This document shows positions 9,477-63,767 of a stretch of DNA of 64,000 bases, one piece after another. The DNA is from Candidatus Magasanikiibacteriota bacterium (GTDB lineage: Bacteria > Patescibacteriota > Patescibacteriia > Magasanikbacterales > GWA2-37-8). A model generated the notes under the pieces. The model did not search any database. It was given only the letters and a program-made list of their open reading frames with translations, and had not been told where the DNA came from. Location: contig CALRGC010000001.1 of NCBI GenBank assembly GCA_943357105.1, forward strand, positions 17,045-81,044, in the 5' to 3' direction. The translations under genes and the position numbers were made by a program. Positions within the stretch are counted from its first letter, which is position 1. Each line of letters starts with the position of its first letter.

Positions 9477-9596
9477 TGAAAATTCTCGGATAATTTGCAA
9501 CTCACTCCGGCTCTGGCCATGAACTCGTCGCTCGGCTCCTCAAACAGCAGGGCCAGCCACGCCTGCGTGACTCACAAATTATTTCCGAGAATTTTC
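9477..9596. repeat. Structured repeat family 2, copy A: GC-rich ~75 bp core flanked by a ~21 bp AT-rich inverted repeat
   Basis: IR tgaaaattctcggataatttg / caaattatttccgagaattttca; core matches the reverse complement of 63669-63747 at about 80% identity. Confidence 0.7.
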
Positions 9597-9597
9597 A

Positions 9598-10017
9598 ATG
9601 GCTCGTTCGATTAAAATATTTATTCCATTTTTATATATGAATATCCTTGCTATTGATTTTGGAACGAAAAATATTGGCCTGGCCTGGAGCGATACCGGGA
9701 TTGGGGTGGTGTTTCCGTTTGGGGTGATTAAGAATGAGGATAAGAATAAAGCTAAAAAAGAATTGCTCGATTTTATTAAAAAAGAACACGCGGAAAAATT
9801 GGTAGTGGGTCTGCCGCTTTCTCTGGATGGCGCGGAAAATAAAAACACTGAGCGTATTCGGGAATTTGTTGCAGATTTAAAAACCGATATCAAAGTAGAA
9901 TTTTTTGACGAGCGGTTTTCATCGGCGCAGGCGGATCGCTCCGAGGGTGGGGTGAGTCGCGATGAAAAATCGGCCATGATAATTTTGGAGGGATATTTGC
10001 ACAAGCTAAAAAAATAA
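9598..10017 (+). CDS. ruvX: Holliday-junction resolvase-like nuclease YqgF/RuvX
   Basis: 139 aa; N-terminal ILAIDFGTKNIGLA motif. Confidence 0.8.
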   Translation: MARSIKIFIPFLYMNILAIDFGTKNIGLAWSDTGIGVVFPFGVIKNEDKNKAKKELLDFIKKEHAEKLVVGLPLSLDGAENKNTERIREFVADLKTDIKVEFFDERFSSAQADRSEGGVSRDEKSAMIILEGYLHKLKK

Positions 10018-10020
10018 AGC

Positions 10021-10728
10021 ATGTATTCCTTTGTTCTCAAGCGTTCTGATTTGCGTGAGCAGGACCAAATAGTGACCCTGTATACTTTGGAAAAAGGCAA
10101 AGTGGACGCTTTGGCGCGCGGGGTAAAAAAAATACTTAGCAAAAACTCGGCCTATCTGTTGCCGGTTTTTTTGATTGATGCCGAAGTGTTGTCCGGCAAA
10201 GAAGTAAATCATCTTACCAAGGCTGTGCCGGTATTTGTCTATAAAAATATTTTGGAGGATTTGAGTAAAATGAGTTTATTGCAAACGGTTTTCAAATGGG
10301 TAAATATTTTGACCAAGTACGAGCGCGAACCAAAAATTTTTCTTTTGATAAAAAGTTGGTTGGAATTTTTGGATGCTACGGATAAAGTGGAAACGGCTTT
10401 GGCGTATGGATTTCTGGGAAATATTTTAACGCATTTGGGGTTTGCGCCTGAGCTCGACAATTGTATTTTTTGTCAGAATAAAAATAATTTAGTGGCTTTT
10501 TATCCGGCCGGTGGCGGGGTGGTTTGTAAAAATTGTTTTTTGCTCAAGAGGCAGGCGGACAATAAAATTTATCCACTTCGAGCCATAGATTTACAGGCTA
10601 TGAGCTTGCTTTTCGCCAGTAATTGGCAAAAAATTCTGAGTCATAATACCGAGATTGCCAATCGGTTGGTATTTTTATATGGGCAATATCACAGTGAGCG
10701 AAAGTTGAATAAAATTAAACTTTTTTAG
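10021..10728 (+). CDS. recO: DNA repair protein RecO
   Basis: 235 aa; OB-fold N-terminus; C-terminal zinc motif CIFCQ...CKNC. Confidence 0.75.
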   Translation: MYSFVLKRSDLREQDQIVTLYTLEKGKVDALARGVKKILSKNSAYLLPVFLIDAEVLSGKEVNHLTKAVPVFVYKNILEDLSKMSLLQTVFKWVNILTKYEREPKIFLLIKSWLEFLDATDKVETALAYGFLGNILTHLGFAPELDNCIFCQNKNNLVAFYPAGGGVVCKNCFLLKRQADNKIYPLRAIDLQAMSLLFASNWQKILSHNTEIANRLVFLYGQYHSERKLNKIKLF

Positions 10729-10783
10729 TCAGTGGAGTGTGTTTTTATAAGTTATAATTATTTACTTTAAATTAAAATTATTG

Positions 10784-10803
10784 TAAACTATGTTCATAGT
10801 TTA
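10784..10803. promoter_or_regulatory. 20-bp near-perfect palindrome (taaactatg-tt-catagttta) immediately upstream of fic; operator-like
   Basis: aaactatg / catagttt inverted repeat with a 2-nt spacer, 10 bp before the fic ATG. Confidence 0.4.
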
Positions 10804-10812
10804 TTGAATTTT

Positions 10813-11901
10813 ATGCAACCGTATATTCCAGAGTCCCTGCCACTCAAAGAGTTAAATTGGGATAAGTATGTTTCTCTGATAGGCAAAGCTAATGCAGAAG
10901 TAGCCAGATTTGATGGTTTGCTACAAGGAATGCCAAATCCAGAAGTTTTGTTGTCGCCTCTTACTATGCAAGAAGCGGTTTTATCTTCCAAAATTGAAGG
11001 TACTATGGCATCTTTAAAGGATGTTTTAGAGTTTGAAGCTGATCCGCAAAAGAAAACAGAAAAATATGATGATATTCAAGAAGTTTTAAATTATAGAAAG
11101 GCAATGCGTTTTTCAGTAAAGGAAATGGAAACCCTGCCTCTGGTTAATAGGCTTATAAAAAATGTACATTCAATATTATTAGACAGTGTTCGCGGACAAA
11201 ATAAACAACCGGGTAGTTTTCGTAGTGGTCAAGTACATATTGGTAAACCAGGGAGTACCCTGGAAACCGCCACGTATGTTCCTCCTGTTCCAAATACAGT
11301 ATCGGATTGTATGAATAATTTGGAAAAGTATTTTCATTATGATGAAAAAGATTTTTTAGTCCAACTGGCCATCATTCATGGACAATTTGAAATTATTCAT
11401 CCGTTTTGGGACGGGAACGGTCGTATTGGTAGAATATTATTACCATTATTTTTATATTACAAAAAAGTTTTATCTACACCAATGTTCTATTTGAGCGCCT
11501 ATTTTGAATCTCACAGAGAAGAATACTATGATAAATTATTACATGTATCCAAGGATAAAGATTGGGATAGTTGGATTATTTATTTTTTACAAGCAATTAT
11601 AGAACAGTCACGAATAAATATAAAAAAGGCTACCGCAATCCATGCTCTGTATGATTCAAAAAAAGAAGAAATAATGAATCTTACCAACTCAAAGTACGCT
11701 ATTAAAACTTTAGATTTTATTTTTAGCTATCCTATTTTTAATAGCACCAATTTTATTAAAACATCCAAAATACCAAAACCTAGTGCTATGAGGGCTTTGT
11801 CGGCTTTAGAGAAAGGTGGTTTATTGAAGAAGATTCATGGTGGTTCCGGTAGAAAACCAGCCACCTATGTATTTGCTAAGTTGTTATCCATAGTTGGGTA
11901 G
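10813..11901 (+). CDS. fic: Fic/Doc family protein (AMPylase-type)
   Basis: Canonical Fic motif HPFWDGNGRIGR; ATG at 10813 preferred over TTG at 10804. Confidence 0.85.
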   Translation: MQPYIPESLPLKELNWDKYVSLIGKANAEVARFDGLLQGMPNPEVLLSPLTMQEAVLSSKIEGTMASLKDVLEFEADPQKKTEKYDDIQEVLNYRKAMRFSVKEMETLPLVNRLIKNVHSILLDSVRGQNKQPGSFRSGQVHIGKPGSTLETATYVPPVPNTVSDCMNNLEKYFHYDEKDFLVQLAIIHGQFEIIHPFWDGNGRIGRILLPLFLYYKKVLSTPMFYLSAYFESHREEYYDKLLHVSKDKDWDSWIIYFLQAIIEQSRINIKKATAIHALYDSKKEEIMNLTNSKYAIKTLDFIFSYPIFNSTNFIKTSKIPKPSAMRALSALEKGGLLKKIHGGSGRKPATYVFAKLLSIVG

Positions 11902-11919
11902 TAGTGTATCATGTAATCA

Positions 11920-11997
11920 ACACTAAATATCTTGTGTATCAAATATTGAAATAAATGACACACTAAATATCTTGTGTATCAAATGGCATATTTAGTA
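11920..11997. repeat. Two 25-bp direct repeats (acactaaatatcttgtgtatcaaat) 40 bp apart, plus inverted half-sites (atatttagt)
   Basis: Exact 25-mer at 11920-11944 and 11960-11984; reverse-complement half-sites at 11988-12010. Confidence 0.7.
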
Positions 11998-12175
11998 TCT
12001 TAGTGGCTATATTTAGCCATTATTTTATTTGAGTTGAGAATTAGAGGACAACAGGAAGTTCGTTTAATTTATACATTCCATAGTAATAAAGCTATAGTTT
12101 TGCACGGATTTTTGAAAAAGTCTCAAAAGATTCCGCAAAAGGAAATTGCTATAGCACAGAAAAAATTATTTTTAC

Positions 12176-12210
12176 TTGACATGGTATAACATATATGTTA
12201 TATTAAATAT
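12176..12210 (+). promoter_or_regulatory. promoter TTGACA-17-TATATT upstream of the XRE gene
   Basis: ttgacatggtataacatatatgttatatt. Confidence 0.5.
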
Positions 12211-12212
12211 GT

Positions 12213-12488
12213 ATGAAATTATATACCAAAATTAAAAGTCAACTTCTTAAAGATAAGCTAACTCGTAAGGCCTATAAAGACCTGGGTGTGGAATTTATGT
12301 TAGCACAAATGGTAATCGAGAAACGCCTTGCCAAGGGATTTACTCAAGCCACTTTGGCCCATAAATTAGGCACTAAGCAGTCCGCAATCGCGAGGCTTGA
12401 ATCTGGTAATTATAACCCGTCCCTAGCCTTTATGGAAAAAATTGCTAAGGCGCTAGATACAAAATTGAAAATTTCTCTAGTAAAATAA
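12213..12488 (+). CDS. XRE-family helix-turn-helix transcriptional regulator
   Basis: 91 aa; HTH LAQMVIEKRLAKGFTQATLAHKLGTKQSAIARLESG. Confidence 0.8.
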   Translation: MKLYTKIKSQLLKDKLTRKAYKDLGVEFMLAQMVIEKRLAKGFTQATLAHKLGTKQSAIARLESGNYNPSLAFMEKIAKALDTKLKISLVK

Positions 12489-12600: not shown

Positions 12601-13893
12601 ATGAATATCCTTATTAAAGAAATTTCCAAACATGTCGGCGAGACCGTGACTATCAAAGGCTGGCTCTACAACAAACGCAGTAGCGGGCCAATCGCCTTCC
12701 TGGAATTGCGTGATGGTTTTGGGTTTGTGCAGGGTGTGGCGGTGCAAAACACTCTGGCTCCGGAAGTGTGGCAGGCTTGTGAAGATGTGACTCAGGAGTC
12801 GTCTATTGAAGTGTCCGGTGAAGTCACCAAACATCCAAAAAAAGAAAATGTTTTTGAATTGCAGATAAAAGATTTTAAGATTTTGCAAAAGGCCGTGGAT
12901 TATCCGATAGCGCACAAAGAGCATGGTCCGGATTTTCTCATGGACAATCGTCATCTGTGGCTACGTAGCAAACGCCAGTGGGCGATTTTGCGCGTGCGTG
13001 ACGCGGTGATTATGGCGATCAATGAATATTTGCATCAGCAGAATTTTATCAAGACCGATTCACCGGTTTTCACGCCCAATGCTTGTGAAGGTACGACCAC
13101 ACTTTTTGCCGTGCCATATTTTGATCTGGGCGAAGCGTTTCTTTCTCAGTCCGGTCAGCTCTATATTGAGGCGGCGATTGCGTCGGTGGGCCGCTGTTAT
13201 GATTTTGGTCCGGTGTTTCGCGCGGAAAAAAGTAAGACCAAACGCCATCTCACTGAATTTTGGATGATGGATGCCGAGGGCGCGTTTGTGGAACATGAAG
13301 AAAATTTGAAAATTCAAGAAGGTTTGGTGCGTCATATTGTGCGCTATTGTTTGGAACATTGTATGGAGGAACTCATTATCTTGGAACGCAATATTGAAAA
13401 TCTCAAAAAAGCCGACGCTCCGTTTACGTGCTATACTTATGATGAAGCGATAGTAAAATTAAACGCGATGGGTAGCGATATTAAATATGGTGAAGATTTG
13501 GGCAATGATGATGAAGGACTGCTGACCAAAGATTCGGAAGTGCCGGTCTTTATCGAAAAATGGCCAAAGAGTATTAAACCATTTTATATGAAACGATCGG
13601 CGGAAAATCCAGATTTGGTTTACAATGATGATTTGATTGCTACTGAAGGTGGCGGTGAATTGATCGGTGGTAGTCAGCGTGAAGATGATATTGAATTATT
13701 GATTGCTTGCATCAAAGCCGAAGGACTAAATGAAGCGGACTATAGCTGGTATACAGATCTGCGCAAATATGGCAGTGTGCCACATTCCGGATTTGGTATT
13801 GGGCTAGAGCGCGCGGTGCGCTGGATCACCGGTGTGGAGCATATTCGCGAATGTATTCCGTTCCCACGTACCATCAGCAGATTGAAACCATAA
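12601..13893 (+). CDS. asnS: class IIb aminoacyl-tRNA synthetase, asparaginyl (or archaeal-type aspartyl)-tRNA ligase
   Basis: 430 aa; N-terminal OB anticodon-binding domain; class II motifs (FRAE, GSQRE, GFGIGLER). Confidence 0.8.
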   Translation: MNILIKEISKHVGETVTIKGWLYNKRSSGPIAFLELRDGFGFVQGVAVQNTLAPEVWQACEDVTQESSIEVSGEVTKHPKKENVFELQIKDFKILQKAVDYPIAHKEHGPDFLMDNRHLWLRSKRQWAILRVRDAVIMAINEYLHQQNFIKTDSPVFTPNACEGTTTLFAVPYFDLGEAFLSQSGQLYIEAAIASVGRCYDFGPVFRAEKSKTKRHLTEFWMMDAEGAFVEHEENLKIQEGLVRHIVRYCLEHCMEELIILERNIENLKKADAPFTCYTYDEAIVKLNAMGSDIKYGEDLGNDDEGLLTKDSEVPVFIEKWPKSIKPFYMKRSAENPDLVYNDDLIATEGGGELIGGSQREDDIELLIACIKAEGLNEADYSWYTDLRKYGSVPHSGFGIGLERAVRWITGVEHIRECIPFPRTISRLKP

Positions 13894-13902
13894 AATTAAA
13901 AT

Positions 13903-13940
13903 AAAAAATCACTCGATTATTTCGGGTGATTTTATTTTTT
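13903..13940 (+). terminator. intrinsic terminator after asnS
   Basis: atcactcga-ttatt-tcgggtgat stem followed by a T-tract. Confidence 0.7.
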
Positions 13941-14609: not shown

Positions 14610-15182
14610 TTATTCTTTTTTTAGCGAGATTTTTTTAATAAATTTTTTAGTTTGTTTTGTTATTCTAATAGTGTATTTATCCGCATTTTTTGTTTTTATT
14701 TTATACAAATTAGCCTTAAAATTTAACCGAGCGATCATTTTTAAAACTTCATCGGCTAATTTCGGTATTATTGTTACAAAATTTACCATTATATATCCTC
14801 GATCGGAATAAATGGATCCGTCGGTTTCTATTAGTCCGCGCAGACATTCAATAGAAAATTTTTTATTATTCAATATCCATTTTGGTATTTTAATATTTTG
14901 TTTATGTTTCGGCCCATTATTTGCTTTCCAGCCAAGCAATTTTTCCCATTGATTGGAATAACAGCTGATATCGCAACAATTTTGTTTTCTGGTGACTATA
15001 GAAATTTTATTTTTAGACATTATTTCTCGTATAACTTCAATAATCCTTTGTCGCAATTTAGGATATTTATTATCACAAGTAATCCGTAGTCGTACGGCGC
15101 GTCCGTTGGGATTAGAAAGATTACCGTCGCCAATGGCGAGGCCTATTAGATAAGCTAGTTTACCCCTCCTAGTTTGAAGCAT
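14610..15182 (-). CDS. LAGLIDADG-family homing endonuclease (two motifs), free-standing, starting 3 nt after tRNA-Leu
   Basis: Motifs LIGLAIGDGNL and LRGLIETDGSI; the annotated ORF extension to 15242 overlaps the tRNA, so the internal ATG at 15182 was chosen. Confidence 0.7.
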   Translation of the reverse strand: MLQTRRGKLAYLIGLAIGDGNLSNPNGRAVRLRITCDNKYPKLRQRIIEVIREIMSKNKISIVTRKQNCCDISCYSNQWEKLLGWKANNGPKHKQNIKIPKWILNNKKFSIECLRGLIETDGSIYSDRGYIMVNFVTIIPKLADEVLKMIARLNFKANLYKIKTKNADKYTIRITKQTKKFIKKISLKKE

Positions 15183-15185
15183 ATT

Positions 15186-15270
15186 TGGTGCCGATGGTGG
15201 GACTTGAACCCACAAACCCGAAGGCACATGATTTTGAGTCATGCATGTTTACCAATTTCATCACATCGGC
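15186..15270 (-). tRNA. tRNA-Leu (anticodon CAA), long variable arm, CCA encoded
   Basis: Cloverleaf: acceptor GCCGATG/CATCGGC; anticodon loop CTCAAAA; T-loop GGTTCAAGTCC. Confidence 0.8.
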
Positions 15271-16126: not shown

Positions 16127-16976
16127 TATGTCATTAGGACGAGGATTAGGCGCGCTTATAACGCCCACCGGAAAAAATAATTCAGTCAGTGTCAGTGCCG
16201 ATGAAGGTAAAGTTTGGTTTATACCGCTGAGCAAAGTGACGGCTGATCCCAATCAGCCGCGTAAAAAATTTAATCAAGAGGAATTAAATCAATTAGCCGC
16301 GTCAATAAAAGAGCATGGCGTGCTTCAACCGATTTTGGTAGTAGAAAAAAACGACGGTGGTTATGAGTTGGTGGCTGGTGAACGCCGCTGGCGTGCTTCG
16401 CACATCGCGGGCATGACCACAATTCCGGCTTTAATTAAAAAATTGGCCGATCAACAAAAAGTAGAAATTTCTTTGATTGAAAATATTCAGCGCCAAGATT
16501 TGGATCCGATCGAAGAAGCCTTTGCGTATAAAAGATTGATGGAAGAATTTAATCTCACTCAGCAACAGGTGGCGGATAAAGTTGGCAAGAGTCGTCCGGC
16601 GGTGGCCAACGCGGTGCGATTGTTGGATTTACCGGTAGAGGTGCAGGCGGCTTTGGTAGAGAGGAAGATAAATTCTGGTCAGGCGCGTGCCTTGTTGGCT
16701 TTATCGACTGAAAAAGAACAGCTAGATATGCTCGCCTCGATGATGGGAGAAAAAATCACCGTGCGTGAGATTGAGCGTGAAGCCAACAAACAAAAAGTTT
16801 TGCATCATCGGCCGATTCGCAAAGATGCCAATCTGTTATTTTTGGAAGATAAATTGCGGGCGGAGTTTGGGACAAAAGTTAATATTACTCAAAAGGGGGA
16901 TAGAGGGACCGTCGTGATTGATTATTATTCGCAGGAGGAATTGAAGCGGGTGATTAAAAAATTACTTGGTGAATAA
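16116..16976 (+). CDS. parB: chromosome partitioning protein ParB/Spo0J
   Basis: ParB box GERRWRA; HTH. Confidence 0.9.
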   Translation: MKNNMSLGRGLGALITPTGKNNSVSVSADEGKVWFIPLSKVTADPNQPRKKFNQEELNQLAASIKEHGVLQPILVVEKNDGGYELVAGERRWRASHIAGMTTIPALIKKLADQQKVEISLIENIQRQDLDPIEEAFAYKRLMEEFNLTQQQVADKVGKSRPAVANAVRLLDLPVEVQAALVERKINSGQARALLALSTEKEQLDMLASMMGEKITVREIEREANKQKVLHHRPIRKDANLLFLEDKLRAEFGTKVNITQKGDRGTVVIDYYSQEELKRVIKKLLGE

Positions 16977-16987
16977 ATTTTTAAAAT

Positions 16988-17152
16988 AAAAAAGACTTTG
17001 GATTTTTTACCTGATAAAAGTTCGCATAATTGGCTATAAATTTTCGTTATGGCCCTAAGGGTAGGGCCATTGGCCTTACGGCCACCACTCAAATTTACTT
17101 AACGCCAATTAGGGGCTCACTTTTATGCGGTAAAAAATCCAAAGTCTTTTTT
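16988..17152. repeat. Structured repeat family 1, copy 2, between convergent parB and tsaD
   Basis: IR aaaaaagactttggattttttacc / ggtaaaaaatccaaagtctttttt; core about 88% identical to copy 1 with compensatory changes; A-tract and T-tract flanks. Confidence 0.8.
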
Positions 17153-17155
17153 ATT

Positions 17156-18235
17156 TTAAAAATTGAGGTGCCAATTTGGGTCTGCCTTTATATCCTCCCA
17201 TTTTGTATAATTATTCTTTTGGGCTTGGTAATATCCGGCCACGGCAATCATCGCGCCGTTATCCATGCAGTATTTTAATTCTGGGCAGAGGAATTTTGTG
17301 TCTGGGAAATTGTCGGTAATATTTTTTTGTAAACATTCCCGTAGTTTTTTATTGGCGCTGACGCCGCCAGCCAGCACCAAAGTTTTTGGTTTTATTTTTT
17401 CTACGGCCTTGAGAGTTTTATAGGCCAACACATCTACTATCGACTGTTCAAAGCTGGCGCAGAAATCTTCGCGGGTGATTGGGTCACCGGAGATACCTAG
17501 TCGGCTTGGCAACCAAGAAAAAATTTTTCCAATTCCAGTAGGATTTACAGCAGCTAGTTTATGATCCCGTAGCCAATACAGTGCGGCGGTTTTTAATCCG
17601 GAAAAAGAAAATTCAAAATTATTTTCTTTGATCATCGGACGCGGTAAATTTATCGCGTCAGTTTTGCCATTCATCGCCAGTTTGGAAATTTGAGGACCAC
17701 CGGGATAGGGAATATCCAATAATTTAGCGACTTTATCAAAACATTCACCAGCGGCATCATCTTTGGTGGCGCCGAGCACTTTATAACTTCCCGGTTCATT
17801 AATTTGGACTATTTCAGTATGACCTCCGCTCACGACTAGAGCAATCGCGGGATATTCGATTTTTTGTCCCGGCGTTAATTCCACCGAATATACATGACCC
17901 TGGAGATGATTGGTCGCAATAAGTGGGATGTTCCAGACCATAGATAAAGTGCGAGCGGCTTCCACGCCCACAATCAATCCGGTGATTAAGCCAGGTCCAG
18001 CCGTGACCGCGATGGCGTCAGGTTTCGGTTGGTCTTTGAGAATTTCTTCAATCAGTGGAATAATTTTTTCGGCATGCATGCGTCCGGCGATTTCCGGCAC
18101 TACACCGCCGTATTTTTTATGCACATCAATTTGCGAAGCAGTTTTTTCGGATAACACAACACAGCCTTGTTCACTACAATCTAGTAGTGCTACGGAAGTA
18201 TCATCACAAGATGATTCAATGCCAAGTATAATCAT
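17156..18235 (-). CDS. tsaD: tRNA N6-adenosine threonylcarbamoyltransferase TsaD
   Basis: 359 aa; Kae1/TsaD family (MIILGIESSCDDTSVALL). Confidence 0.9.
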   Translation of the reverse strand: MIILGIESSCDDTSVALLDCSEQGCVVLSEKTASQIDVHKKYGGVVPEIAGRMHAEKIIPLIEEILKDQPKPDAIAVTAGPGLITGLIVGVEAARTLSMVWNIPLIATNHLQGHVYSVELTPGQKIEYPAIALVVSGGHTEIVQINEPGSYKVLGATKDDAAGECFDKVAKLLDIPYPGGPQISKLAMNGKTDAINLPRPMIKENNFEFSFSGLKTAALYWLRDHKLAAVNPTGIGKIFSWLPSRLGISGDPITREDFCASFEQSIVDVLAYKTLKAVEKIKPKTLVLAGGVSANKKLRECLQKNITDNFPDTKFLCPELKYCMDNGAMIAVAGYYQAQKNNYTKWEDIKADPNWHLNF

Positions 18236-35430: not shown

Positions 35431-35533
35431 GTAACAGGGAGGCAAATTACTTTTGAGCGGGTTATGAGGCCAAGCCTCATCCTTTCGCCCTCGCGGGCGA
35501 AAAAAGCGAAAAAGTCATTTGCCTCACTGTTAC
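35431..35533. repeat. Structured repeat family 3, copy 1: ~57 bp GC-rich core with two short hairpins inside a copy-specific ~24-bp inverted repeat
   Basis: Core gagcgggttatgaggccaagcctcatcctttcgccctcgcgggcgaaaaaagcgaaaa is identical in 47331-47388; flanks gtaacagggaggcaaattactttt / aaaagtcatttgcctcactgttac. Confidence 0.75.
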
Positions 35534-38415: not shown

Positions 38416-40399
38416 ATGAATGTTAGTGAATTAGCTAGACAACTCCGAGTCCATCCTGCCAAGCTCCTGCAAATTTTGCCGGAGTTCGGTTTTGATATCG
38501 GCGCGCGCGCCGTAAAAATCGATGATCGGGTGGCGGCGCAAATTCAGCGCGATTGGCGTCGAATAAAATTTGTGCTCGAGGACAGAGAACTAAAAGCCAA
38601 AGAAAAAGAAAAAGAGTTGGAACGTCAAATGCGCAAAGAAAGTGGTGTGGTGGTGGAGATTCCCAATGTTTTGACGGTGCGTGAACTGTCCGATTTGCTC
38701 AATATGCCGATCAATAAGTTGATTTTGGAATTGATGAAAAATGGTATCTTGGCTACTCAAAATGAAAAGATTGATCGGGACTCCGCTTCTTTAATTGCTC
38801 AAGAACTTGGTTTTACTACTTCGGTAAAAAATGAAAATCAAGTCGTGCCAGAAGATACTACTCACTTGGAAAATTTAGAAAAAATATTATCCAGCAGTGC
38901 CGATACCGCTCGCCCGCCAGTAGTAGTGGTGATGGGCCATGTAGATCATGGTAAAACCAAATTATTGGATTCGATTCGTAGTGCCAATGTGATGGCTAGT
39001 GAAGCCGGTGGTATTACTCAGCATATTGGCGCGTACCAAGTAATTTGGAATAATCCAAAAACCAAAGAAAAATCTCCACTTACTTTTATTGATACTCCAG
39101 GCCACGAAGCTTTTACCGTGATGCGTAGCCGTGGCGCCAAGGTGGCCGATATCGCGATTCTCGTAGTTGCCGCTGATGATGGTGTGAAACCTCAAACTGT
39201 AGAAGCGATCAATATTATTAAGGCTGCCAAATTACCGGTAGTCGTAGCCATAAACAAAATTGATAAACCAGGTGCTGACGTGCAGAAAGCCAAAAGTGAA
39301 TTATCAACACATAATTTAATTCCCGATGATTGGGGTGGCGATGTGCCGATGGTAGAAATTTCCGCTAAAGAAAATTTGAATATTGATAAATTGCTCGATA
39401 CTATTTTATTGGTGGCGGAATTAAATGCTGTGACTATTAAAGCCGATGCTACTCGTGCCGCCGCCGGTACCGTAATCGAAGCCCATGTTGACAAAGGCCA
39501 AGGCCCAGTGGCGACTGTATTGGTGCAAACCGGTACTCTGAAAGTAAATGATCCGCTTGTAGTGAACGGTGAAATTTACGGCAAAGTGCGCGCGATGAAA
39601 AATTATCGCGGTGATGATATGAAAACCGCCACTCCTAGTACGCCGGTGAGAATTCTTGGTTTTAAATTAGCACCTCGCGTGGGAGATGTGCTGGATGTCG
39701 GTAGTGTTGATAGCGCGTCAGAAATTAATCTGAAAAATAAACGCGTACAAAATACCGGCGCCGAACAACGTCCGCTGGCCTCTACCGGTGACACCGAAGC
39801 GGATGAAGCGCGCAAAACTTTTAATATTGTTATCAAGACCGATGTGCTCGGATCGCTTGAAGCCATTACCGCCTCGCTCGAAAAAATGAAAAATGATGAA
39901 GTTAGTGTGAAAGTGGTTGGCAAAGGTTTGGGCCACGGGCGCGCAAGTTTTTGGTTTTAATGTTACCACCAGCTCCCTGGCTAATGAGATGATGGGCAAT
40001 ACCGGCGTCCAATTCAAACAGTTCAAAATTATCTATGACCTTTTTGATTATGTCAAAGAAGAGTTGGAAAAACTTTTGAATCCGGAATTAATTATCACCG
40101 AATTGGGTAATATCAAAATCATGGCTATCTTCCGCACGGAAAAAGGCCATATGATCGTCGGTGGTCGCGTGGAAATGGGCAAACTGCAAAAAGATTGCAA
40201 AGTGCGCGTGAAACGCAATAAAGAAATTATTGGTAAAGGCGCCCTGTCTCATCTGCAGACCGGTAAACAAGAAGTAAAAGAAATTCCTGAAGGCACGGAA
40301 TGCGGTGTACAGTTTGATGGTAAGCTGAGACTTGAAGTTGGGGATGTGCTCGAAGCGTATAAGGAAGAGAAGAAAGAAAAGAAATTGGTTTTGAGCTAA
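38416..40399 (+). pseudogene. infB: translation initiation factor IF-2 with the reading frame broken near 39925-39950 (roughly 29 nt missing)
   Basis: ORF 38416-39960 (G domain VVVMGHVDHGKT) and ORF 39917-40399 (IF-2 C-terminus AQVFGFNVTTSS) are in different frames. Confidence 0.8.
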
Positions 40400-40430: not shown

Positions 40431-40751
40431 ATGGAACACACATTTACTGACGCAAATTTTAAAGCTGAAGTTTTGGAAAGCAAAACTCCGGTGTTTGTGG
40501 ATTTTTGGGCACCATGGTGCGGACCTTGTCAGATGATGGGGCCGATTGTGGAAGAATTGGCCAAAGAATTGGACGGCAAAAATATTAAAATCGGCAAATT
40601 GAATGTGGATGAAAACAATGACACCTCGACTGCCTACAGCGTGATGAGTATCCCAACTTTCTTGATATTCAAAGGTGGGGAAGTGGTGGATCAGATTACC
40701 GGTGGTGTGCAGAAGGAAAAATTGAAAGAAATGATGGCAAAGTATCTGTAA
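40431..40751 (+). CDS. trxA: thioredoxin
   Basis: WAPWCGPCQMM. Confidence 0.9.
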   Translation: MEHTFTDANFKAEVLESKTPVFVDFWAPWCGPCQMMGPIVEELAKELDGKNIKIGKLNVDENNDTSTAYSVMSIPTFLIFKGGEVVDQITGGVQKEKLKEMMAKYL

Positions 40752-40759
40752 AATTAAAA

Positions 40760-40797
40760 TAAAAAACACTCGAATATTCGAGTGTTTTTTATTTTTT
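40760..40797 (+). terminator. intrinsic terminator after trxA
   Basis: acactcgaatattcgagtgt palindrome plus T-tract. Confidence 0.7.
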
Positions 40798-47305: not shown

Positions 47306-47411
47306 AAAAAACACGGCGCATAGTTACCTTTGAGCGGGTTATGAGGCCAAGCCTCATCCTTTCGCCCTCGCGGGCGAAAAAAGCGAAAAGGTCACTGTGC
47401 GCCGTGTTTTT
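47306..47411. repeat. Structured repeat family 3, copy 2, inserted in the loop of a canonical bidirectional terminator (acacggcgca/tgcgccgtgt with A- and T-tracts)
   Basis: Same core as 35454-35511; flanks aaaaacacggcgcatagttaccttt / aaaggtcactgtgcgccgtgttttt. Confidence 0.75.
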
Positions 47412-47429: not shown

Positions 47430-49268
47430 TTAAACTTCAATAATCACCGGTAAAATCATCGGACGTTTTTCAGTTTTGGTATAGAGAAACTGTCCCACGT
47501 AGTCGCGAATTTTATTGCGAATATTATTGGTATCGGCCCAAGAGAGCGGGTCAGATTCGGTAACAATTTTTTTCACGCGATGACGTAGATCCTCGATCAG
47601 TTCTTTATGCTCTTTGAGGAAGATAAAACCACGAGAAATAATATCTGGATTTTGAACCAATCTTCCACTTTTGGAATCAACGGTAGCGATAATTACCACC
47701 ATACCATCCTCAGCCAATACTTGGCGATCGCGCAAGACGACGTTGGTTTCATCCGATACTCCGAGGCCATCGACAAACACATAGTCAGACGGAATTTTTT
47801 CTTTGGTCAAAGTACCGACACCATTTTGGAATTCCATTACCTGGCCATTGTCAGCAATAAATACATTTTCTTTGGCCATGCCGATAGAGGTGGCGATGCG
47901 GCCGTTATAATGTAATAAGAAGTGGTTGCCGTGAATTGGTACAAAATATTTTGGCGCGACTAAACGCAACATTAATTTTACATCGTCGGCTTTGGCATGA
48001 CCACCAGCATGCACATCCATCATCTGATAATGAATCACTTCGGCGCCACGGCGAAATAGAGTGTCTTTGAGTCTTTGCACCGTGCGTTCGTTGCCCGGAA
48101 TTACCGAAGATGAAAAGACAATCGTGTCACCCGGAATTAATTTGATAAAGCGATGTTCGCCATTGGCGATACGCATCAGGGCGGCATTTTTTTCCCCTTG
48201 AGCGCCGGTACAGATAATCATCGTTTTATTTTTTGGGTAATTATCTAGTTGTTTTAAATCCACGATAGTTTTGGAATTAAATTTCATGTAGCCGAGCTCC
48301 TAGGCGATTTCGATATTATTTTTCATGGAGAAGCCTTCAATGGCCACTACTTTGCCGGCTTTTTCGGCGATTTCGATCATCTGTTTAATGCGCGATAATA
48401 AGGAAGCAAAAGTACCGATGATCAAGCGACCCGGGACTTTTTTGATAATATCTTCTAGATTAGTACCAATTTCTGATTCAGAAATTTGGTGGCCAGGCTG
48501 TGAAGCATTGGTAGAGTCGGAAAGTAAAGCCAGTACGCCTTCGCTACCGATTTTGGCAATCTTTTGCAGATCAGCCGGAGCATCACCAGCTACCGGTTGA
48601 TAGTCAAATTTCCAGTCACCGGTATGAATAATCACACCTTCCGGTGTGCCAACTTTGATACCCATGGAGTCTGGAATATTATGATTGAGATGGAAAAATT
48701 CCACTTCAAAAATACCGAGTTTGAGTTTATTTTCTAAATTAACATTGTGAATAGATAAAGGACGCAGACCCTTGTAGTCTTCTTGGCGTTTTTTGATAAT
48801 GGCGTTGGTCAAAGGCAAGCCGTAAATTGGCGGATAACCCAAAACCGGAATAAGGTGAGGAATTCCGCCGATATGATCGTAGTGACCATGAGTGATAATT
48901 ACCCCGCGGATATTTTTTTCTTTACCTTTAAGGTAGTTCATGTTTGGGATGATGTAATCAATACCAGGCATGTCTTCTTCGGGGAATTGTAAACCCATGT
49001 CGATAATAATAATATCGTCACCGTATTCGAGAATAGTGCAGTTGCGGCCGATTTCTTCCAGACCGCCGACTACCATGACGCGTAATTTTTTTCCAAATGT
49101 AGCTGGAGTCGGAATGGTGGTGCGTACTCTTGGGAAAGAAGGTCCGCGAAAATTTCGCATTGAGTTAAAAGGTTGTGCTCCTTGCGGTTTGGCCGCTGGA
49201 GAATTTGGTGTTCGATTTGGCCGCGCGCTGTTGGCGCTGGCAAACGAACTTCTTGGTTGTGAAATCAT
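47430..49268 (-). pseudogene. rnj: ribonuclease J (MBL/beta-CASP) interrupted by one in-frame TAG codon at 48300-48302
   Basis: ORF 48300-49268 (HGHYDHIGG MBL domain) and ORF 47430-48287 (beta-CASP/C-terminus) are in the same frame, reading ...IEIA-TAG-ELGYMKFNS... Confidence 0.8.
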
Positions 49269-59502: not shown

Positions 59503-59517
59503 ATGTAAGAATTATTG

Positions 59518-60937: not shown

Positions 60938-60944
60938 ATTCAAT

Positions 60945-61637
60945 ATGAAAGCGATTATTTTGGCTGGGGGACTTGGTACCAGGTTGCGTCCTTTGACGGA
61001 CATTACTCCCAAACCACTTTTGCCCATAAAAGGTAAACCAATCATTGAACATGCGATTTTGAATTTTAAAAAACACGGCATCAAGGATATTATTTTATCG
61101 ATTGGTTATAAGGCCGAAACTATTAAAGAATATTTTGGCGACGGAAAAAAATGGGAAGTGAAAATTAGTTACGCGGTGGAGGATCAGCCGCTTGGTACGG
61201 GCGGCGCCTTGAAGATGGCTTCGACGGGAGTGAAAGAAACTTTTGTGGCTATCAATGGCGACAATCTGGCGGATTTTGATTGGACTGCGGCAATAGAAAC
61301 GCATAAAAAAAATAAAGCTAAAGTGACTTTACAGCTTTTTCCGGTGGAAGATGTTACGAAGTTTGGAATCGCGCGTTTGGATGATGGGAAAATTGTGGAA
61401 TTTATTGAAAAACCAACAGTGGAACAGGCGCCTTCTAATTTGAATAATGCCGGTGGTTATATTTTAGAAGCGGATGCCTTGGATATTTTGCCGGAAGGGT
61501 TTTGTATGATTGAAAAGGATTGTTTTGAGAAATTAGCTTCGACTGGAGTGGTGTTTGCGCATCATCATGGTGGACAGTGGTTTCCGACGGACACGATTGA
61601 GAAATATACTCACGCGGATGAGAATTTTAATCCATGA
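60945..61637 (+). CDS. sugar-1-phosphate nucleotidylyltransferase
   Basis: LAGGLGTRLRPLT signature; TGA stop. Confidence 0.8.
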   Translation: MKAIILAGGLGTRLRPLTDITPKPLLPIKGKPIIEHAILNFKKHGIKDIILSIGYKAETIKEYFGDGKKWEVKISYAVEDQPLGTGGALKMASTGVKETFVAINGDNLADFDWTAAIETHKKNKAKVTLQLFPVEDVTKFGIARLDDGKIVEFIEKPTVEQAPSNLNNAGGYILEADALDILPEGFCMIEKDCFEKLASTGVVFAHHHGGQWFPTDTIEKYTHADENFNP

Positions 61638-62503
61638 ATTTAATTTTTGAAAAATATAAATTTCTCCTCATTCCGACGGCACTGGCGATTTTTTTATTTG
61701 GAGGACTGCTGTCTTACAGACATTTTAGCCGGCCTAAGCGTGTGGCGATACCACCGCGGGCGGAAATAAATATTACGATTATTCCCGGGTGGAATTTGCG
61801 TCAGATCGCGGCCGATTGGCAGGCCAAAGGTCTGATAAAATCCGAGGATGAATTGTATGATTTGGTAGGCAAACCGGCTTATAATTACAAAGCGCATGCG
61901 CGCAGAGCGCCGGTTTTGGATTTTGTTTCCACTTCGAGCTTTGATTATTTTTTTGCCGGTAAATCAAAATATTTATCTTATGAGGGATATTTTTTACCGG
62001 ATACTTATCGGGTATATGCTGACGCGAACGCCAAAGATATTATCAAAAAAATATTTAATCATTTAGATGAAGATATTACTCCGGAAATGCGCGCGGAAAT
62101 TTCACGTCAAGGGAAAAGTTTCCAAGATATTTTAAATATGGCTTCGGTGGTGGAAAAAGAAGCGCCGACGGCGGATAGTATGGGGATGGTGGCGGATATT
62201 TTTTGGCGCCGCCTCAAGTCTGGTTGGCCTTTGCAATCTTGCGCCACGATAAATTATATCACCGGCAAAAATGATCCGGCCGCTTCGGCCAAAGACAAAG
62301 TGATTGATTCTCTCTATAATACTTATAAGTACCCGGGTCTGCCTCTTGGACCGATTAGCAACCCAAGTTTTAATGCTATTAAGGCCGTGATTTATCCGAT
62401 AAAAAATGATTATTGGTATTTTATGAGCGGTACGGATGGACAATTGCATTTCGCGAAGACTCTAGACGAGCACAATCGGAATGTTTATAAATATTTACGG
62501 TAG
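61634..62503 (+). CDS. mltG: endolytic murein transglycosylase MltG/YceG
   Basis: N-terminal TM; YceG domain. Confidence 0.85.
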   Translation: MNLIFEKYKFLLIPTALAIFLFGGLLSYRHFSRPKRVAIPPRAEINITIIPGWNLRQIAADWQAKGLIKSEDELYDLVGKPAYNYKAHARRAPVLDFVSTSSFDYFFAGKSKYLSYEGYFLPDTYRVYADANAKDIIKKIFNHLDEDITPEMRAEISRQGKSFQDILNMASVVEKEAPTADSMGMVADIFWRRLKSGWPLQSCATINYITGKNDPAASAKDKVIDSLYNTYKYPGLPLGPISNPSFNAIKAVIYPIKNDYWYFMSGTDGQLHFAKTLDEHNRNVYKYLR

Positions 62504-62517
62504 ACATAAATATTTTT

Positions 62518-63615
62518 ATGAAAACAAAAGATTTTGATTATTTTCTTCCACACGAATTAATCGCGCAATTCCCAGCGGAGCCGCGGGATTCTTCACGGTT
62601 GATGGTGGTGGATAAAAATACTCAGCAGACAAAGCATGAACATTTTTACGATATTATAAATTATTTGCAAGCAGGGGATTTGCTGGTGTGGAATAATTCC
62701 AAAGTTTTTAAGGCGCGTTTGCGGGGAACGATTGAACTGGATGAAAAAACCGCGGATACTAAAATTCCGGCCAATGCCACAGATAAAATTCTCAACGCCG
62801 CTAAGGTAGAAATATTTTTGGTGCGGCCGATGGAAAATTTTGGCGTGTGGAAGGCGCTGGCCAAACCAGGGAGAAAATTGCGCCTGGGAATAAAAATAAT
62901 ATTTGCTAAAGATTTTTTTGCGGAAGTAATTTCCAAAGAGAGTGATGGCACATTTTTATTGCAATTTAAAGATGATGATATGGAAGTGCGCGCTAAAGCC
63001 AATAAGTATGGCGAAGTGCCAACACCGCCATATATTAAATCCGGTGAATTTGCCAATTTGGATAAACGCTATCAGACGGTGTATGCCAAGCACGAAGGCT
63101 CGGTGGCCGCACCCACGGCCGGGTTTCATTTCACACCGGAGCTGATAGAGAAATTAGAAAAAAAGGGAGTGCAGTTTGCTGAAGTAACATTACATGTTGG
63201 ACTCGGTACTTTTATGCCAGTAAAGACTGAGGCAATCGAAGATCACAAAATGCACAGTGAATGGGTAGAGCTATCCGACAAAAATGCGCATCTAATAAAT
63301 AACGCCAAAGCCGAAGGTCGCCGCGTCATCGCGGTCGGCACTACTACTGTGCGCACCGTCGAAGGCTTGGCTCTAAAATTTGCCAAAGATCAGCTTGAAC
63401 CATATCAAGGCGATATAAATATTTTTATCACGCCTGGTTTTAAATTTAAAATGATTGACGCGTTGATTACCAATTTTCATTTACCGCAGTCTACACTTTT
63501 GATGCTCGTTTCCGCTTTTGCTGGTGACAGGGAATTTATGCTCAAATGTTATGAAGAAGCCGTAAAAGAAGAATATCGATTCTTTAGTTTTGGTGATGCG
63601 ATGTTGATAAAATAG
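62518..63615 (+). CDS. queA: S-adenosylmethionine:tRNA ribosyltransferase-isomerase
   Basis: 365 aa; QueA family. Confidence 0.9.
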   Translation: MKTKDFDYFLPHELIAQFPAEPRDSSRLMVVDKNTQQTKHEHFYDIINYLQAGDLLVWNNSKVFKARLRGTIELDEKTADTKIPANATDKILNAAKVEIFLVRPMENFGVWKALAKPGRKLRLGIKIIFAKDFFAEVISKESDGTFLLQFKDDDMEVRAKANKYGEVPTPPYIKSGEFANLDKRYQTVYAKHEGSVAAPTAGFHFTPELIEKLEKKGVQFAEVTLHVGLGTFMPVKTEAIEDHKMHSEWVELSDKNAHLINNAKAEGRRVIAVGTTTVRTVEGLALKFAKDQLEPYQGDINIFITPGFKFKMIDALITNFHLPQSTLLMLVSAFAGDREFMLKCYEEAVKEEYRFFSFGDAMLIK

Positions 63616-63646
63616 AGAAACAAATATTTTTATTGAACGAACCGCT

Positions 63647-63767
63647 GAAAACACGAGGAAATAATTTGTGAGCCGACGAGGCGTGGCTGGCTCTGCTGTT
63701 TGAGGAGCGTCAAGCGACGAATTCAGAGCCAGAGCTTCGGCGGGTTGCAAATTATCCGAGTGTTTTC
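63647..63767. repeat. Structured repeat family 2, copy B (inverted orientation relative to copy A)
   Basis: IR gaaaacacgaggaaataatttg / caaattatccgagtgttttc; core about 80% identical to the reverse complement of 9498-9573, including a compensatory pair change. Confidence 0.7.

Follow-up and report, generated by a model that had tools for sequence, protein, structure and literature searches.

Two GC-rich palindromic stretches, one at the map–ruvX junction (copy A) and one downstream of queA (copy B), raise the question of whether they are remnants of a duplication, copies of an RNA gene or ruvX regulator, or members of a mobile family.

Two Copies of One Long Hairpin

A repeat search of the window (the entire 64-kb stretch of DNA analyzed) confirmed two copies in opposite orientation, as described in an earlier note, and returned the inverted pairs 9535–9636/63607–63708 (102 nt, 79% identity) and 9453–9532/63713–63792 (80 nt, 81% identity). 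Alignment of A and B with MAFFT gave a mean column identity of 89% over ∼156 nt, or 80% identity over the full 175 nt including gaps. The note had proposed an ∼80-nt core within a ∼120-nt unit, each unit enclosed by its own ∼21-bp AT-rich inverted repeat. Instead, the A/B homology spans ∼170 nt (Table 1), and the AT-rich arms, gaaaaTTctcgg/ccgagAAttttc in A and gaaaaCAcgagg/ccgagTGttttc in B, are homologous between the copies, with compensatory changes. These repeats are the lower stem of a single long hairpin and part of the element. That no ORF is conserved was borne out; the core contains a 2-nt indel, and the reading frames of A and B diverge. The motif strand of copy A is the minus strand, antisense to both map and ruvX, and that of copy B is the plus strand, in the same sense as queA, the TAG stop codon of which (63613–63615) is overlapped by the 5′ arm of the hairpin.

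Copy A had also been thought to abut the ruvX start codon, but the ATG in question (9598) falls within the element and is probably not the start. RuvX proteins of relatives are 126 residues long and begin MNILAIDFG; the equivalent position here is the ATG at 9637, 14 to 16 nt past the hairpin end, which, judged by these homologs, is probably the true start codon.

One account of such a pair, a recent segmental duplication or a chance similarity of two GC-rich palindromes, would fit the presence of only two copies in the window. However, the repeat family extends beyond them, as the note had anticipated: nine more full-length members (n = 11 in total) were found at other loci in independent Candidatus Magasanikbacteria-type assemblies. 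In addition, the flanks of A and B are unrelated, fold z-scores lie between −11 and −13, and covariation exceeds all controls. Duplication or chance is thereby refuted and retains practically no probability.

Table 1. Coordinates of Family 2 features in the window
Feature	Position	Strand	Remarks
Copy A, full hairpin	9451..9623	−	R1 model 176.6 bits
Copy A, conserved element	9453–9621	−	AAATATTT at start, AAATATTT at end
Copy A, apical motif	9522..9547	−	Loop without GU, reads CGA
Copy A, basal tandem-GA motif, 5′ strand	9601..9608	−	GAACGAGC on minus strand
Copy A, basal tandem-GA motif, 3′ strand	9466..9473	−	GCGAGAGA on minus strand
Probable true ruvX start codon	9637..9639	+	MNILAIDFG...; from relatives' RuvX
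Empty site just past infB stop	40396..40398		Family 2 copy here in related MAG CAYHBZ01 (L002)
Copy B, full hairpin	63609..63805	+	R1 model 189.6 bits; −98.3 kcal/mol, z = −13.4
Copy B, conserved element	63622–63792	+	Outside it, copy-specific outer stem
Copy B, apical motif	63696..63723	+	CU-GUUUGAGGAGC-GUCAA-GCGACGA-AUU
Copy B, basal tandem-GA motif, 5′ strand	63635..63642	+	GAACGAAC; pairs with 63772–63779
Copy B, basal tandem-GA motif, 3′ strand	63772..63779	+	GUGAGUGA
Left flank of copy B	63609..63624	+	AAAATAGAGAAACAAA; orthologous to unique sequence at L025 empty site; includes queA stop
Inverted copy of B left flank	63790..63805	+	TTTGTTTCTCTATTTT; without counterpart at empty site
Putative target-site duplication, right copy	63807..63815	+	GAGAATAAA
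Bidirectional intrinsic terminator, queA–rplK	63815..63846		Also at empty site

The Fold Is Kept by Compensatory Change and Is Strand Specific

Both copies fold far beyond chance, B(+) with z = −13.4 and A(−) with −81.9 kcal/mol and z = −10.9. The aligned copies show that the Family 2 element is one long imperfect hairpin, or rod, whose stems evolve by compensatory change. Double compensatory changes were found at 28 of 64 pairs (19 of 50 in another count), 87.3% of cells were paired compared to 32 to 44% with the partners slid (shifted controls), and the observed pairing and covariation values were reached by none of 500 shuffles. A conserved structure with genuine covariation was thus upheld, the test on aligned copies exceeding all controls; of the A/B stem change originally cited, one pair is indeed compensatory (C–G in A, U–A in B), but the next pair along is mismatched in A (C·U).

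In 16/16 elements, the motif strand is more stable than its complement, and it accommodates 81 G·U pairs vs. 23 on the complement. Four tandem mismatches of the sheared G·A type (eight G·A positions) never vary, and covariation is seen in the Watson–Crick pairs beside them. The apical motif, which is asymmetric and ∼30 nt long, is likewise invariant. Both features, together with most of the G·U pairs, are present on one strand only. It is this asymmetric apex, not the ends, that is most conserved; the termini drift in sequence yet stay paired (L001, ACATACAT.../...ATGCATGT; L008 also differs).

The proposed apex fold consists, in order, of U·A (U·G in most copies), (G·A A·G), G:C, (G·A A·G), G:C and C:G, with a loop of 3 to 5 nt, and the pair G6:C5′ is swapped to C:G in L027. 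The apical motif recurs in nine different stem contexts, including divergent CPR lineages; in several distant relatives it is all that is common, set in unrelated stems, and distant relatives carry a second conserved hairpin. Some of this apex conservation reflects ascertainment, since both collection scans were run with core or apex patterns. In the basal motif, G·A/A·G is invariant in 10 of 10 copies, and the Watson–Crick pairs between the mismatches covary (AC/GU to GU/AC in L002 and L027).

Junctions Are Filled or Empty among Close Relatives

Comparison of orthologous junctions shows that close relatives differ in whether a given tight gene junction contains the element. The queA site is empty in L025, the QueA of which is 90% identical. 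At map–ruvX, the window and L027/L028 (81%) carry a copy, and L026 (Map 92% identical), P0122 and L029–L036 lack one; at infB, L002 has a copy where the window has none. At the clpP junction, copies are present in L003 and L021; for this junction in 23 other loci, the R1 model gave zero hits in 260 kb, and the DHH–clpP gaps read measure 56 to 78 bp in L037 and L050 and 107 to 220 bp in L044, L045 and L047. Absence from close relatives at every locus checked indicates that the element is dispensable and not syntenic.

Orthologous junctions of different lineages can also be filled in opposite orientation (L003 vs. L021; L004 vs. L020). Copies at different loci in different genomes reach 88 to 94% identity (B–L003), above the ∼80% of host genes and coding DNA, whereas copies at the same loci share 73% (L003–L021) or 61% (A–L027), showing that copies cluster by host clade and not by locus. 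Across loci there was no orientation bias relative to flanking genes: roughly half run antisense to the genes on both sides, within tight operons (A, L002, L003, L020, L027), and several copies lie in sense orientation in 3′ UTRs ahead of a terminator (B, L001, L005, L015). GC skew does not switch within the window although A and B are opposite; therefore, orientation is not uniform relative to replication direction.

These distributions bear on two readings in which the element serves its host. A host-functional structured RNA module, the rod being transcribed within neighboring mRNAs or alone and acting by way of the protein-binding apical/GA motif (for instance, to stabilize mRNA 3′ ends, to serve in processing or as an insulator, or to act as a sponge or scaffold for protein), would draw on the strand-specific tandem G·A and G·U pairs typical of RNA, the apical motif kept in nine unrelated stems across CPR lineages, conservation above that of host coding DNA, the sense 3′ UTR copies, and the second hairpin of distant relatives, which is reminiscent of a longer ncRNA. 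Mobility or duplication would then be secondary, for which sRNAs derived from MITEs are a precedent. We consider this possible though doubtful, given the antisense copies inside tight operons, the lack of any promoter-like site (σ70-like) on the motif strand, the absences from close relatives, the reversals of orientation between orthologous sites and the lack of an Rfam match. The apex conservation across CPR bacteria and the B–L003 identity would also be expected if a host function placed the element under purifying selection.

A DNA-level host site, that is, a cruciform or strand-specific single-stranded DNA (ssDNA) hairpin used, for example, in replication priming, fork handling, nucleoid organization or integron-attC/Xer-type recombination, appears very improbable. 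The hairpin features can form in DNA as well (sheared G·A, G·T), and position is independent of transcription direction, but the element is patchy among close relatives and low in copy number, lacks a cassette-array context and R′/R″ core sites at its ends, and is oppositely oriented in A and B relative to a constant GC skew.

Two of Three Junctions Carry a Putative Insertion Signature

Relative to the empty site in L025, the left flank of copy B holds the left copy of a putative target-site duplication, GAGAAACAAA. At that site, AAGAAATAAA occurs once, and L025 positions 3337–3342 align on both sides of B. The 16-nt inverted flank copy constitutes the copy-specific outer stem of B, and the queA–rplK terminator is pre-existing and outside the element. 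Imperfect direct repeats of 7 to 10 bp are found at two of three junctions (GAGAAACAAA/GAGAA-TAAA and ATGGAAT/ATGAAAT) and are ambiguous at the third.

Such junctions are what a classical DDE-type MITE would leave, its terminal inverted repeats (TATTTT.../...AAAATA) being bound in double-stranded form by a trans-acting IS transposase that makes staggered cuts. The elements are indeed short, noncoding, bounded by terminal inverted repeats, insertion-polymorphic and found in both orientations. The hairpin potential would be incidental, and the apparent covariation would reflect mutational palindrome correction (template switching between arms) rather than selection; fold-back copying does happen at these hairpins, as the inverted flank copy of B attests. 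Yet the termini are unconserved in sequence while pairing is kept, the asymmetric apex rather than the ends is most conserved, and palindrome correction should erase asymmetric mismatches, contrary to the eight invariant G·A positions and the one-stranded G·U excess. A parental IS was not found, and we regard this origin as unlikely.

A Mobile Hairpin Is the Favored Reading

Taken together, the data point to a mobile, insertion-polymorphic hairpin over a dedicated ncRNA gene or ruvX regulator because relatives have empty sites, junctions are filled either way, copies cluster by host clade and the motif strand has no promoter-like site. We put at roughly 55% the probability that A and B belong to a non-autonomous, MITE/REPIN-like mobile hairpin family in which the folded single strand is what is recognized; on the best reading, its hosts are Candidatus Magasanikbacteria and other CPR bacteria.

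Such a family would spread by copying and insertion, using those few AT-rich intergenic sites that a compact genome leaves permissive. The machinery of insertion would recognize the motif strand as a folded single strand, either ssDNA or RNA, with the apex and GA motifs as a protein handle. A staggered cut at insertion would yield the ∼7- to 10-bp target duplication. The long outer stems may arise afterward, or during gap repair, by fold-back/template-switch copying of the flank, a step proposed because B shows an inverted flank copy. Effects on neighboring genes, for example from a very stable hairpin in the queA 3′ UTR or the map–ruvX spacer, would be by-products.

No transposase, recombinase or reverse transcriptase was found, ten unassigned ORFs of the window having been tested, and no neighboring gene recurs across loci. 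Copy number looks low (2 in the 64-kb window, 0 in ∼380 kb from other Magasanikbacteria, a sequence set with some redundancy). Low copy number and imperfect target duplications speak against mobility; moreover, target duplications would be left unexplained by an HUH ssDNA transposase, and a DDE transposase binding double-stranded DNA would not explain covariation or the invariant strand-specific G·A.

Comparison with Known Systems

The earlier note had allowed that a known repeat might account for the pair, but no match emerged from the collections searched: Rfam gave no family even at E ≤ 10, and phage, plasmid and viral-contig collections none to Family 2. Family 2 elements are previously uncatalogued ∼170-base hairpin-forming insertions of the tiny CPR (candidate phyla radiation) bacteria.

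Like 6S RNA and small SRP RNA, they are imperfect hairpins in the ∼100- to 190-nt range with conserved internal loops or apex. Those RNAs are single-copy, syntenic, essential or near-essential genes, whereas Family 2 has multiple copies that are insertion-polymorphic and lie in either orientation.

ERIC, Neisseria Correia/NEMIS, Rickettsia RPE and pneumococcal RUP/BOX elements are likewise 100- to 170-bp imperfect palindromes, intergenic or cotranscribed, that occur in both orientations, vary in presence by strain and can fold in mRNA. Their conserved part is the terminal inverted repeats, and Correia adds a fixed TA duplication; in Family 2, conservation lies in the apex and the strand-specific mismatches, and the termini change with compensation. 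These elements are not known to share sequence similarity with Family 2.

IS200/IS605-derived PATEs and integron attC sites share strand-specific recognition of imperfect hairpins and conservation of structure over sequence. PATEs have separate left-end and right-end hairpins and insert 3′ of a fixed tetra- or pentanucleotide without duplication, and attC sites form cassette arrays beside intI with R″/R′ core sites, none of which is seen in Family 2.

TIGR stem-loop arrays (TIGR-Tas) also occur in CPR bacteria, with flanking stems that vary yet are always palindromic around conserved short GA-type motifs. The TIGR motifs are box C/D, the units lie in tandem arrays beside a Tas (Nop-domain) gene, and the spacers are unpaired guides (PMC12045711). 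Family 2 units, in contrast, lie singly and dispersed between housekeeping genes, form no array and are paired over the full length of the rod.

REPINs, composed of REP sequences mobilized by RAYT transposases (Bertels & Rainey; PMC3116915, PMC3337134), are likewise noncoding intergenic hairpin repeats found in either orientation, with stems kept by compensatory change; like Family 2, they are thought to be recognized as a folded single strand by a single-copy enzyme in trans, and both persist within lineages. A REPIN is built from a pair of short, inverted REP units that carry a conserved GTAG end; tens to hundreds of copies are usual, and the RAYT gene is flanked by REPs (PMC3116915, PMC3337134). 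In Family 2, no RAYT was seen, copy number is low, and the element is a single rod of 170 nt that bears four tandem G·A motifs together with an asymmetric apex that is conserved; its junctions may carry 7- to 10-bp duplications. In having moved between gene junctions with a precise, strand-specific fold retained, Family 2 has the look of a novel kind of miniature mobile element, not of an ordinary gene or duplication.

Family 2 Copies A and B Are Single Long Noncoding Hairpins

A repeat search of the window returned two inverted pairs, 9535-9636/63607-63708 (102 nt, 79% identity) and 9453-9532/63713-63792 (80 nt, 81%), and reading of both sites placed copies A and B of the Family 2 element where the earlier note had put them, in opposite orientation. 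The unit is longer than the ~120 nt proposed there, as homology spans from the octamer AAATATTT to its inverted partner. The element is thus ~170 nt long, noncoding and within the size range of MITEs (<~300 bp), and its core carries a 2-nt indel. When the reverse complement of A is aligned with B, the mean column identity is 89% across the central ~156 nt. The AT-rich inverted repeats, which had been taken as each copy's own, are instead homologous between A and B and differ by paired changes; they form the lower stem of one long hairpin. The Family 2 ends are inverted (AAATATTTT.../...AAAATATTT), as in the terminal inverted repeats of MITEs, and the terminal sequence drifts with compensation. 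The strands that carry the noncanonical motifs described below (motif strands) have fold energies of -98.3 kcal/mol (z = -13.4) for B(+) and -81.9 kcal/mol (z = -10.9) for A(-), and the complementary strands fold 18-22 kcal/mol worse.

Contrary to the earlier note, copy A probably does not abut the ruvX start codon: ATG 9598 falls inside the element, and the RuvX start of relatives (126 aa, N terminus MNILAIDFG) corresponds to ATG 9637. The proposed absence of a conserved ORF was borne out when the frames of A and B were compared. The sole ORF start common to the copies is a TTG (MQ..), the frame of which is gone after ~13 codons, and the indels are not multiples of three. No conserved small hydrophobic ORF of the type I toxin-antitoxin (Sib/Ibs-like) kind was found on either strand of Family 2, and a type I toxin-antitoxin repeat was therefore rejected.

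Coordinates of hairpin elements and other features
Feature	Sequence	Position (strand)	Remark
Family 2, copy A	window	9451-9623 (-)	homology 9453-9621
Family 2, copy B	window	63609-63805 (+)	homology 63622-63792
Family 1	window	3776-3959	~185-nt hairpin element
Family 1	window	16976-17164	~185-nt hairpin element
Family 3	window	35431-35520	~90-105-nt hairpin element
Family 3	window	47307-47411	~90-105-nt hairpin element
Family 3	L020	4929-4996, 8884-8945
Family 3	L021	6912-6985, 12850-12925
Family 3	L027	17161-17276
Bidirectional terminators	window	13893-13940, 40750-40797, 63815-63846
infB	window	38416-40399	ORFs 38416-39960 and 39917-40399
RNase J	window	47430-49268 (-)	in-frame TAG at 48300-48302
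LAGLIDADG-type ORF	window	14610-15185 (-)	PF14528, E = 1e-12
tRNA-Leu	window	15186-15270
Fic-family gene	window	10804-11901

Further Full-Length Members Occur in Other Assemblies

The family is not limited to the two copies in the window, in line with the earlier note; further full-length members were found in other assemblies, and the 11 full-length copies occupy eight different gene junctions, three of which are each common to two copies. Four copies, three in the metagenome-assembled genome (MAG) CAYHBZ01 and one in a Magasanikbacteria MAG, came from an exact search with a 22-base core pattern, run on one genome per species. Scanning of metagenomes for an apical-loop pattern added four more full-length members (L006, L008, L020 and L021) and, besides these, more distant relatives (L005, L012, L013, L015, L019 and possibly L007), which share the apical motif only, within long hairpins of unrelated sequence. 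The copy of loci L027/L028 was found without any pattern, through map-ruvX synteny. A covariance model built from ten copies recovered only A and B as Family 2 in the window, its weak Family 1 matches stemming mainly from the common rod shape. Beside these members, duplication or chance similarity as the source of the likeness between A and B is exceedingly improbable. Contigs CAYHBZ010000001/2, which hold loci L001-L003, are titled "uncultured Gammaproteobacteria bacterium"; they are syntenic with the window (rny-infB-trx-dnaE region) at ~80% nucleotide identity, and the label is probably wrong. The window itself belongs, by its QueA and Map proteins, to Candidatus Magasanikbacteria (CPR/Patescibacteria).

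Rfam 15 scans agreed with the view that no known RNA family is matched: at gathering thresholds (window and 10 loci) they returned tRNAs and RNase P only, and at permissive thresholds (E<=10, E<=5) terminator-driven noise only, the scans overall taking in the window, copy B and 13 loci. SRP RNA, 6S RNA and a hammerhead-like core were considered, and their defining features were not found. Neither a pattern scan of IMG/VR nor BLAST against a phage collection and a plasmid collection gave a Family 2 match, and the literature on MITEs or hairpin repeats of CPR bacteria yielded nothing specific. Syntenic loci of relatives (~380 kb), scanned for extra copies that would give pattern-unbiased apices, held none; only L027 supplied an independent apex variant.

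Covariation Supports a Rod with Invariant Tandem G·A Motifs

Covariation was analyzed on a MAFFT alignment of the 11 copies, with the rod structure taken from B. Standard pairs fill 87.3% of the cells, compared to 32-44% in controls with the partners shifted by 1-3 columns, and 28 of the 64 pairs show changes on both sides; 0 of 500 shuffles attained the observed values. RNAalifold independently gave double changes in 19 of 50 pairs. The inner stem, for instance, occurs as CTGGCTCTG/CAGAGCCAG, CTGGCCCTG/CAGGGCCAG, CTGACCGTG/CACGGTCAG, CTGACTCTG/CAGAGTCAG and CTGTCTCTG/CAGAGACAG.

The rod pairs noncanonically at two places, near the base and at the apex, and both are invariant. The basal motif, 5'-GAACGAAC with GUGAGUGA on the 3' strand, reads [G·A A·G] A:U C:G [G·A A·G] A:U C:G; the apical motif, 5'-UGAGGAGC/GCGACGAG, reads U·G [G·A A·G] G:C [G·A A·G] G:C C:G and closes a 3-5-nt loop. 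Among the 10 copies with both motifs, none of the eight G·A positions varies. Between the basal tandems, the Watson-Crick pairs change from AC/GU to GU/AC in L002 and L027, and at the L027 apex (GUCCGACGAGC...GCGAGGAGUU) the pair between the apical tandems is swapped from G:C to C:G. The apical pairing proposed by RNAalifold, UGUUUG/CAAGCG, was rejected in favor of the GA-rich hairpin because L027 breaks the former and compensates the latter. Because the apical motif doubled as a search pattern, ascertainment accounts for part of its invariance, a bias that does not affect the stems, the basal motif or L027. The architecture stem-YU-GUUUGAGGAGC-N2-4-CNAGCGACGA-GUU-stem was found with nine unrelated stem sequences. 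A kink-turn or box C/D motif has a 3-nt bulge with tandem sheared G·A pairs directly after it. Family 2 has tandem G·A pairs four times, the basal ones lying in a regular helix without a bulge, and at the apex a CUG bulge is followed by three U·U/U·G positions before the first G·A; a kink-turn geometry is possible.

On the complementary strand, the GA motifs turn into U·C/C·U mismatches, consistent with the motif strand being the more stable one. Indeed, the motif strand is more stable than its complement in 16 of 16 elements and has 81 G·U pairs versus 23. Such RNA-like motifs, together with an apex that is conserved in distant lineages, favor a host-functional RNA module, the main rival to a mobile element. 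A second conserved hairpin, (U)ACUUUUGG...CCAAAAGU(A), which follows UUUUG 20-40 nt 3' of the rod in L005, L012, L015 and L007, is a further point for this rival; purine-rich tracts come after it in L005 and L012. In these lineages, a longer RNA or element may include the rod as one of its domains.

Family 2 Is Insertion Polymorphic and Occupies Junctions in Either Orientation

The loci of relatives (8-20 kb each) contain empty sites at four loci, and this insertion polymorphism, with dispersed copies, is as found for MITEs. At the queA locus, L025 (QueA 90% identical) has a 48-bp queA-rplK spacer without the element, and the flanks align on both sides of B. The map-ruvX junction is filled in the window and in L027/L028 (81%) and empty in L026 (92%, 8-bp spacer), in P0122 (87%, as judged from gene coordinates) and in L029-L036 (73-77%). 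The infB locus is filled in L002 and empty in the window at 40396-40398. Both L003 and L021 carry a copy at the DHH-clpP junction, and the covariance model found no copy in 23 other Magasanikbacteria clpP loci (260 kb); where the DHH-clpP gap was read, it measures 56-78 bp (L037 and L050) or 107-220 bp (L044, L045 and L047).

With flanks aligning on both sides, the element lies in opposite orientations at the DHH-clpP junction (L003 versus L021) and upstream of glyA (L004 versus L020). The copies sit between housekeeping genes (map/ruvX, queA/rplK, infB/trx, clpP and glyA), their orientation relative to the flanking genes is split about evenly, and A and the copies of L002, L003, L020 and L027 lie antisense inside co-directional gene pairs. 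A consensus scan predicted no sigma-70-like promoter on the motif strand. Antisense copies within operons, the lack of promoters and the dispensability of the element all speak against the RNA module, which we regard as possible but improbable. GC skew is positive across the whole window; thus, A and B are also opposite relative to replication, and a replication-strand bias was rejected. That the repeat is a site serving the host at the DNA level is very unlikely. By pairwise identity, copies group by host clade, not by locus: B and the L003 copy, from different loci and different genomes, are 88-94% identical, compared to 73% (L003 versus L021) and 61% (A versus L027) for same-locus pairs.

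Junctions Suggest Target Duplication and Fold-Back Copying

The queA empty site reads ...ATAAAATAAAGAAATAAAAAAATCCC, and the filled site ...ATAAAATAGAGAAACAAA[TATTTT...AAAATA]TTTGTTTCTCTATTTT-T-GAGAATAAAAAAATCCC. The element is thereby flanked by a direct repeat, GAGAAACAAA / GAGAA-TAAA, the sequence of which is present once in the empty site. Between the element and the right repeat lie 16 nt that match the left flank, queA stop codon included, in reverse complement. We take this to show that the long copy-specific outer stem of B was generated by inverted copying of the flank and not from a pre-existing palindrome, a fold-back seen in one copy only. Insertion into pre-existing terminator hairpins was rejected as the source of outer stems because the empty sites of relatives have no hairpin. 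At map-ruvX, the element lies between ATGGAAT and ATGAAAT, both similar to the single spacer of the empty site, GTTGGAAA; the infB junction is ambiguous. These repeats suggest a target duplication of 7-10 bp. The element is preceded by different sequences (GAGAAAC, TTTTAGA and ATGGAAT), and the empty sites do not support the palindromic AAATATTT as an insertion target.

A Non-Autonomous Mobile Element Fits the Combined Features Best

Family 2 is dispensable in close relatives, repeatedly occupies a few permissive junctions in either orientation, is similar by clade, lacks coding capacity and a promoter, and is bordered by junction repeats. A non-autonomous mobile element best fits these combined features, a reading to which we assign a probability of roughly 55%. 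It is unlike ordinary MITEs, as its ends drift with pairing kept while the strand-specific noncanonical motifs and the asymmetric apex are invariant. This combination suggests a candidate protein that would recognize a folded single strand, either ssDNA or RNA. A MITE with double-stranded terminal inverted repeats (DDE type), its palindrome kept by mutational correction, would leave the invariant asymmetric mismatches unexplained and is unlikely.

A Pfam scan of ten unassigned window ORFs found no transposase, recombinase or RT domain, only a LAGLIDADG-like ORF and HTH proteins, and no gene recurs beside the copies across loci. The LAGLIDADG-type ORF, homing-endonuclease-like and free-standing, adjoins tRNA-Leu, and similar ORFs are annotated near asnS in relatives. 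Where the window has the Fic-family gene, close relatives have a diversity-generating-retroelement-like pair (bAvd and RVT_1), a few kb downstream of map-ruvX-recO. In the window, infB consists of two overlapping ORFs in different frames, an apparent frameshift or assembly error, compared to one 671-aa ORF in the syntenic L002, and RNase J is interrupted by one in-frame TAG (...NNIEIA*ELGYMKFN...) with Pfam domains on both sides.

Two Other Hairpin Families Share the Macro-Architecture

Families 1 and 3 have a macro-architecture like that of Family 2 and are likewise insertion polymorphic. Family 1 has a three-way junction at its apex; the two GC-rich hairpins there covary between copies, and the outer stems are copy specific. 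L026 and L027 lack the first window copy of Family 1, and at this position their two glycosyltransferase genes are separated by 3-4 bp. The window copies of Family 3 have an identical 60-nt core, and ~8 of the 22 positions of the outer stem differ between them, nearly always with compensation, which leaves one or two mispairs per copy; the syntenic L002 lacks the first copy. At parB-tsaD, the window has a Family 1 element and L027 a Family 3 element, and the Family 3 copies of L020 and L021 lie within a few kb of Family 2 copies. Taken together, these observations suggest a common, structure-directed mobilization route in these genomes. The bidirectional intrinsic terminators of the window (A-tract, short GC stem, T-tract), which have similar sequence (AAAAAAnCnCTCGAnT...), are ordinary and distinct from the hairpin families.

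More tentatively, Family 2, perhaps with Families 1 and 3, could represent CPR-wide mobile structured elements in which the tandem-G·A rod and asymmetric apex are the handle for a putative hairpin-recognizing protein. Such a protein might be a new type of transposition or integration enzyme, which would act on folded single strands and still leave target duplications and fold-back flank copies. Alternatively, it might belong to a domesticated RNA-protein system, in which a functional RNA module would be distributed over the operon junctions of minimal genomes. We consider this proposal speculative.

Implications and Comparison with Known Systems

CPR/Patescibacteria genomes are ~1 Mb, tightly packed and thought to be repeat-poor; they nonetheless hold several insertion-polymorphic hairpin families, in operon junctions of 1-10 bp. 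Family 2 unites signatures that usually belong to different mechanisms, namely RNA-like covariation with invariant strand-specific G·A motifs, target-duplication-like repeats and fold-back flank copying. If a partner protein is found, it could define a new DNA mobility route or an RNA-protein module in an uncultured phylum. In practice, the hairpins give false start codons (as at ruvX 9598), very stable mRNA hairpins, and assembly and annotation artifacts in MAGs, and they could act as strain-level markers.

In behavior, Family 2 is closest to REPINs, hairpin repeats that are mobilized in trans and kept by compensatory change (PMC3116915, PMC3337134), and likewise to palindromic MITE-like repeats (ERIC, Correia and RPE). 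However, a REPIN has two inverted REP units and a conserved GTAG-type end, neither of which is present in the single rod of the Family 2 alignment, and no RAYT (Y1 HUH) gene was seen next to any Family 2 copy. An IS200/IS605 PATE inserts 3' of a fixed tetra- or pentanucleotide without duplication, whereas the 5' sequences of Family 2 vary and direct repeats are present at two junctions. The attC sites have R''/R' core sites (GTTRRRY) and lie at the ends of cassettes arrayed beside intI, whereas Family 2 lies at housekeeping junctions and ends in AAATATTT. TIGR forms a tandem array adjoining a Tas (Nop-domain) gene (PMC12045711), whereas the two Family 2 copies of the window are single and 54 kb apart, with no array. 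We file Family 2 among the small palindromic mobile repeats, as a variant not previously described, with a non-negligible chance that it is something more distinct.
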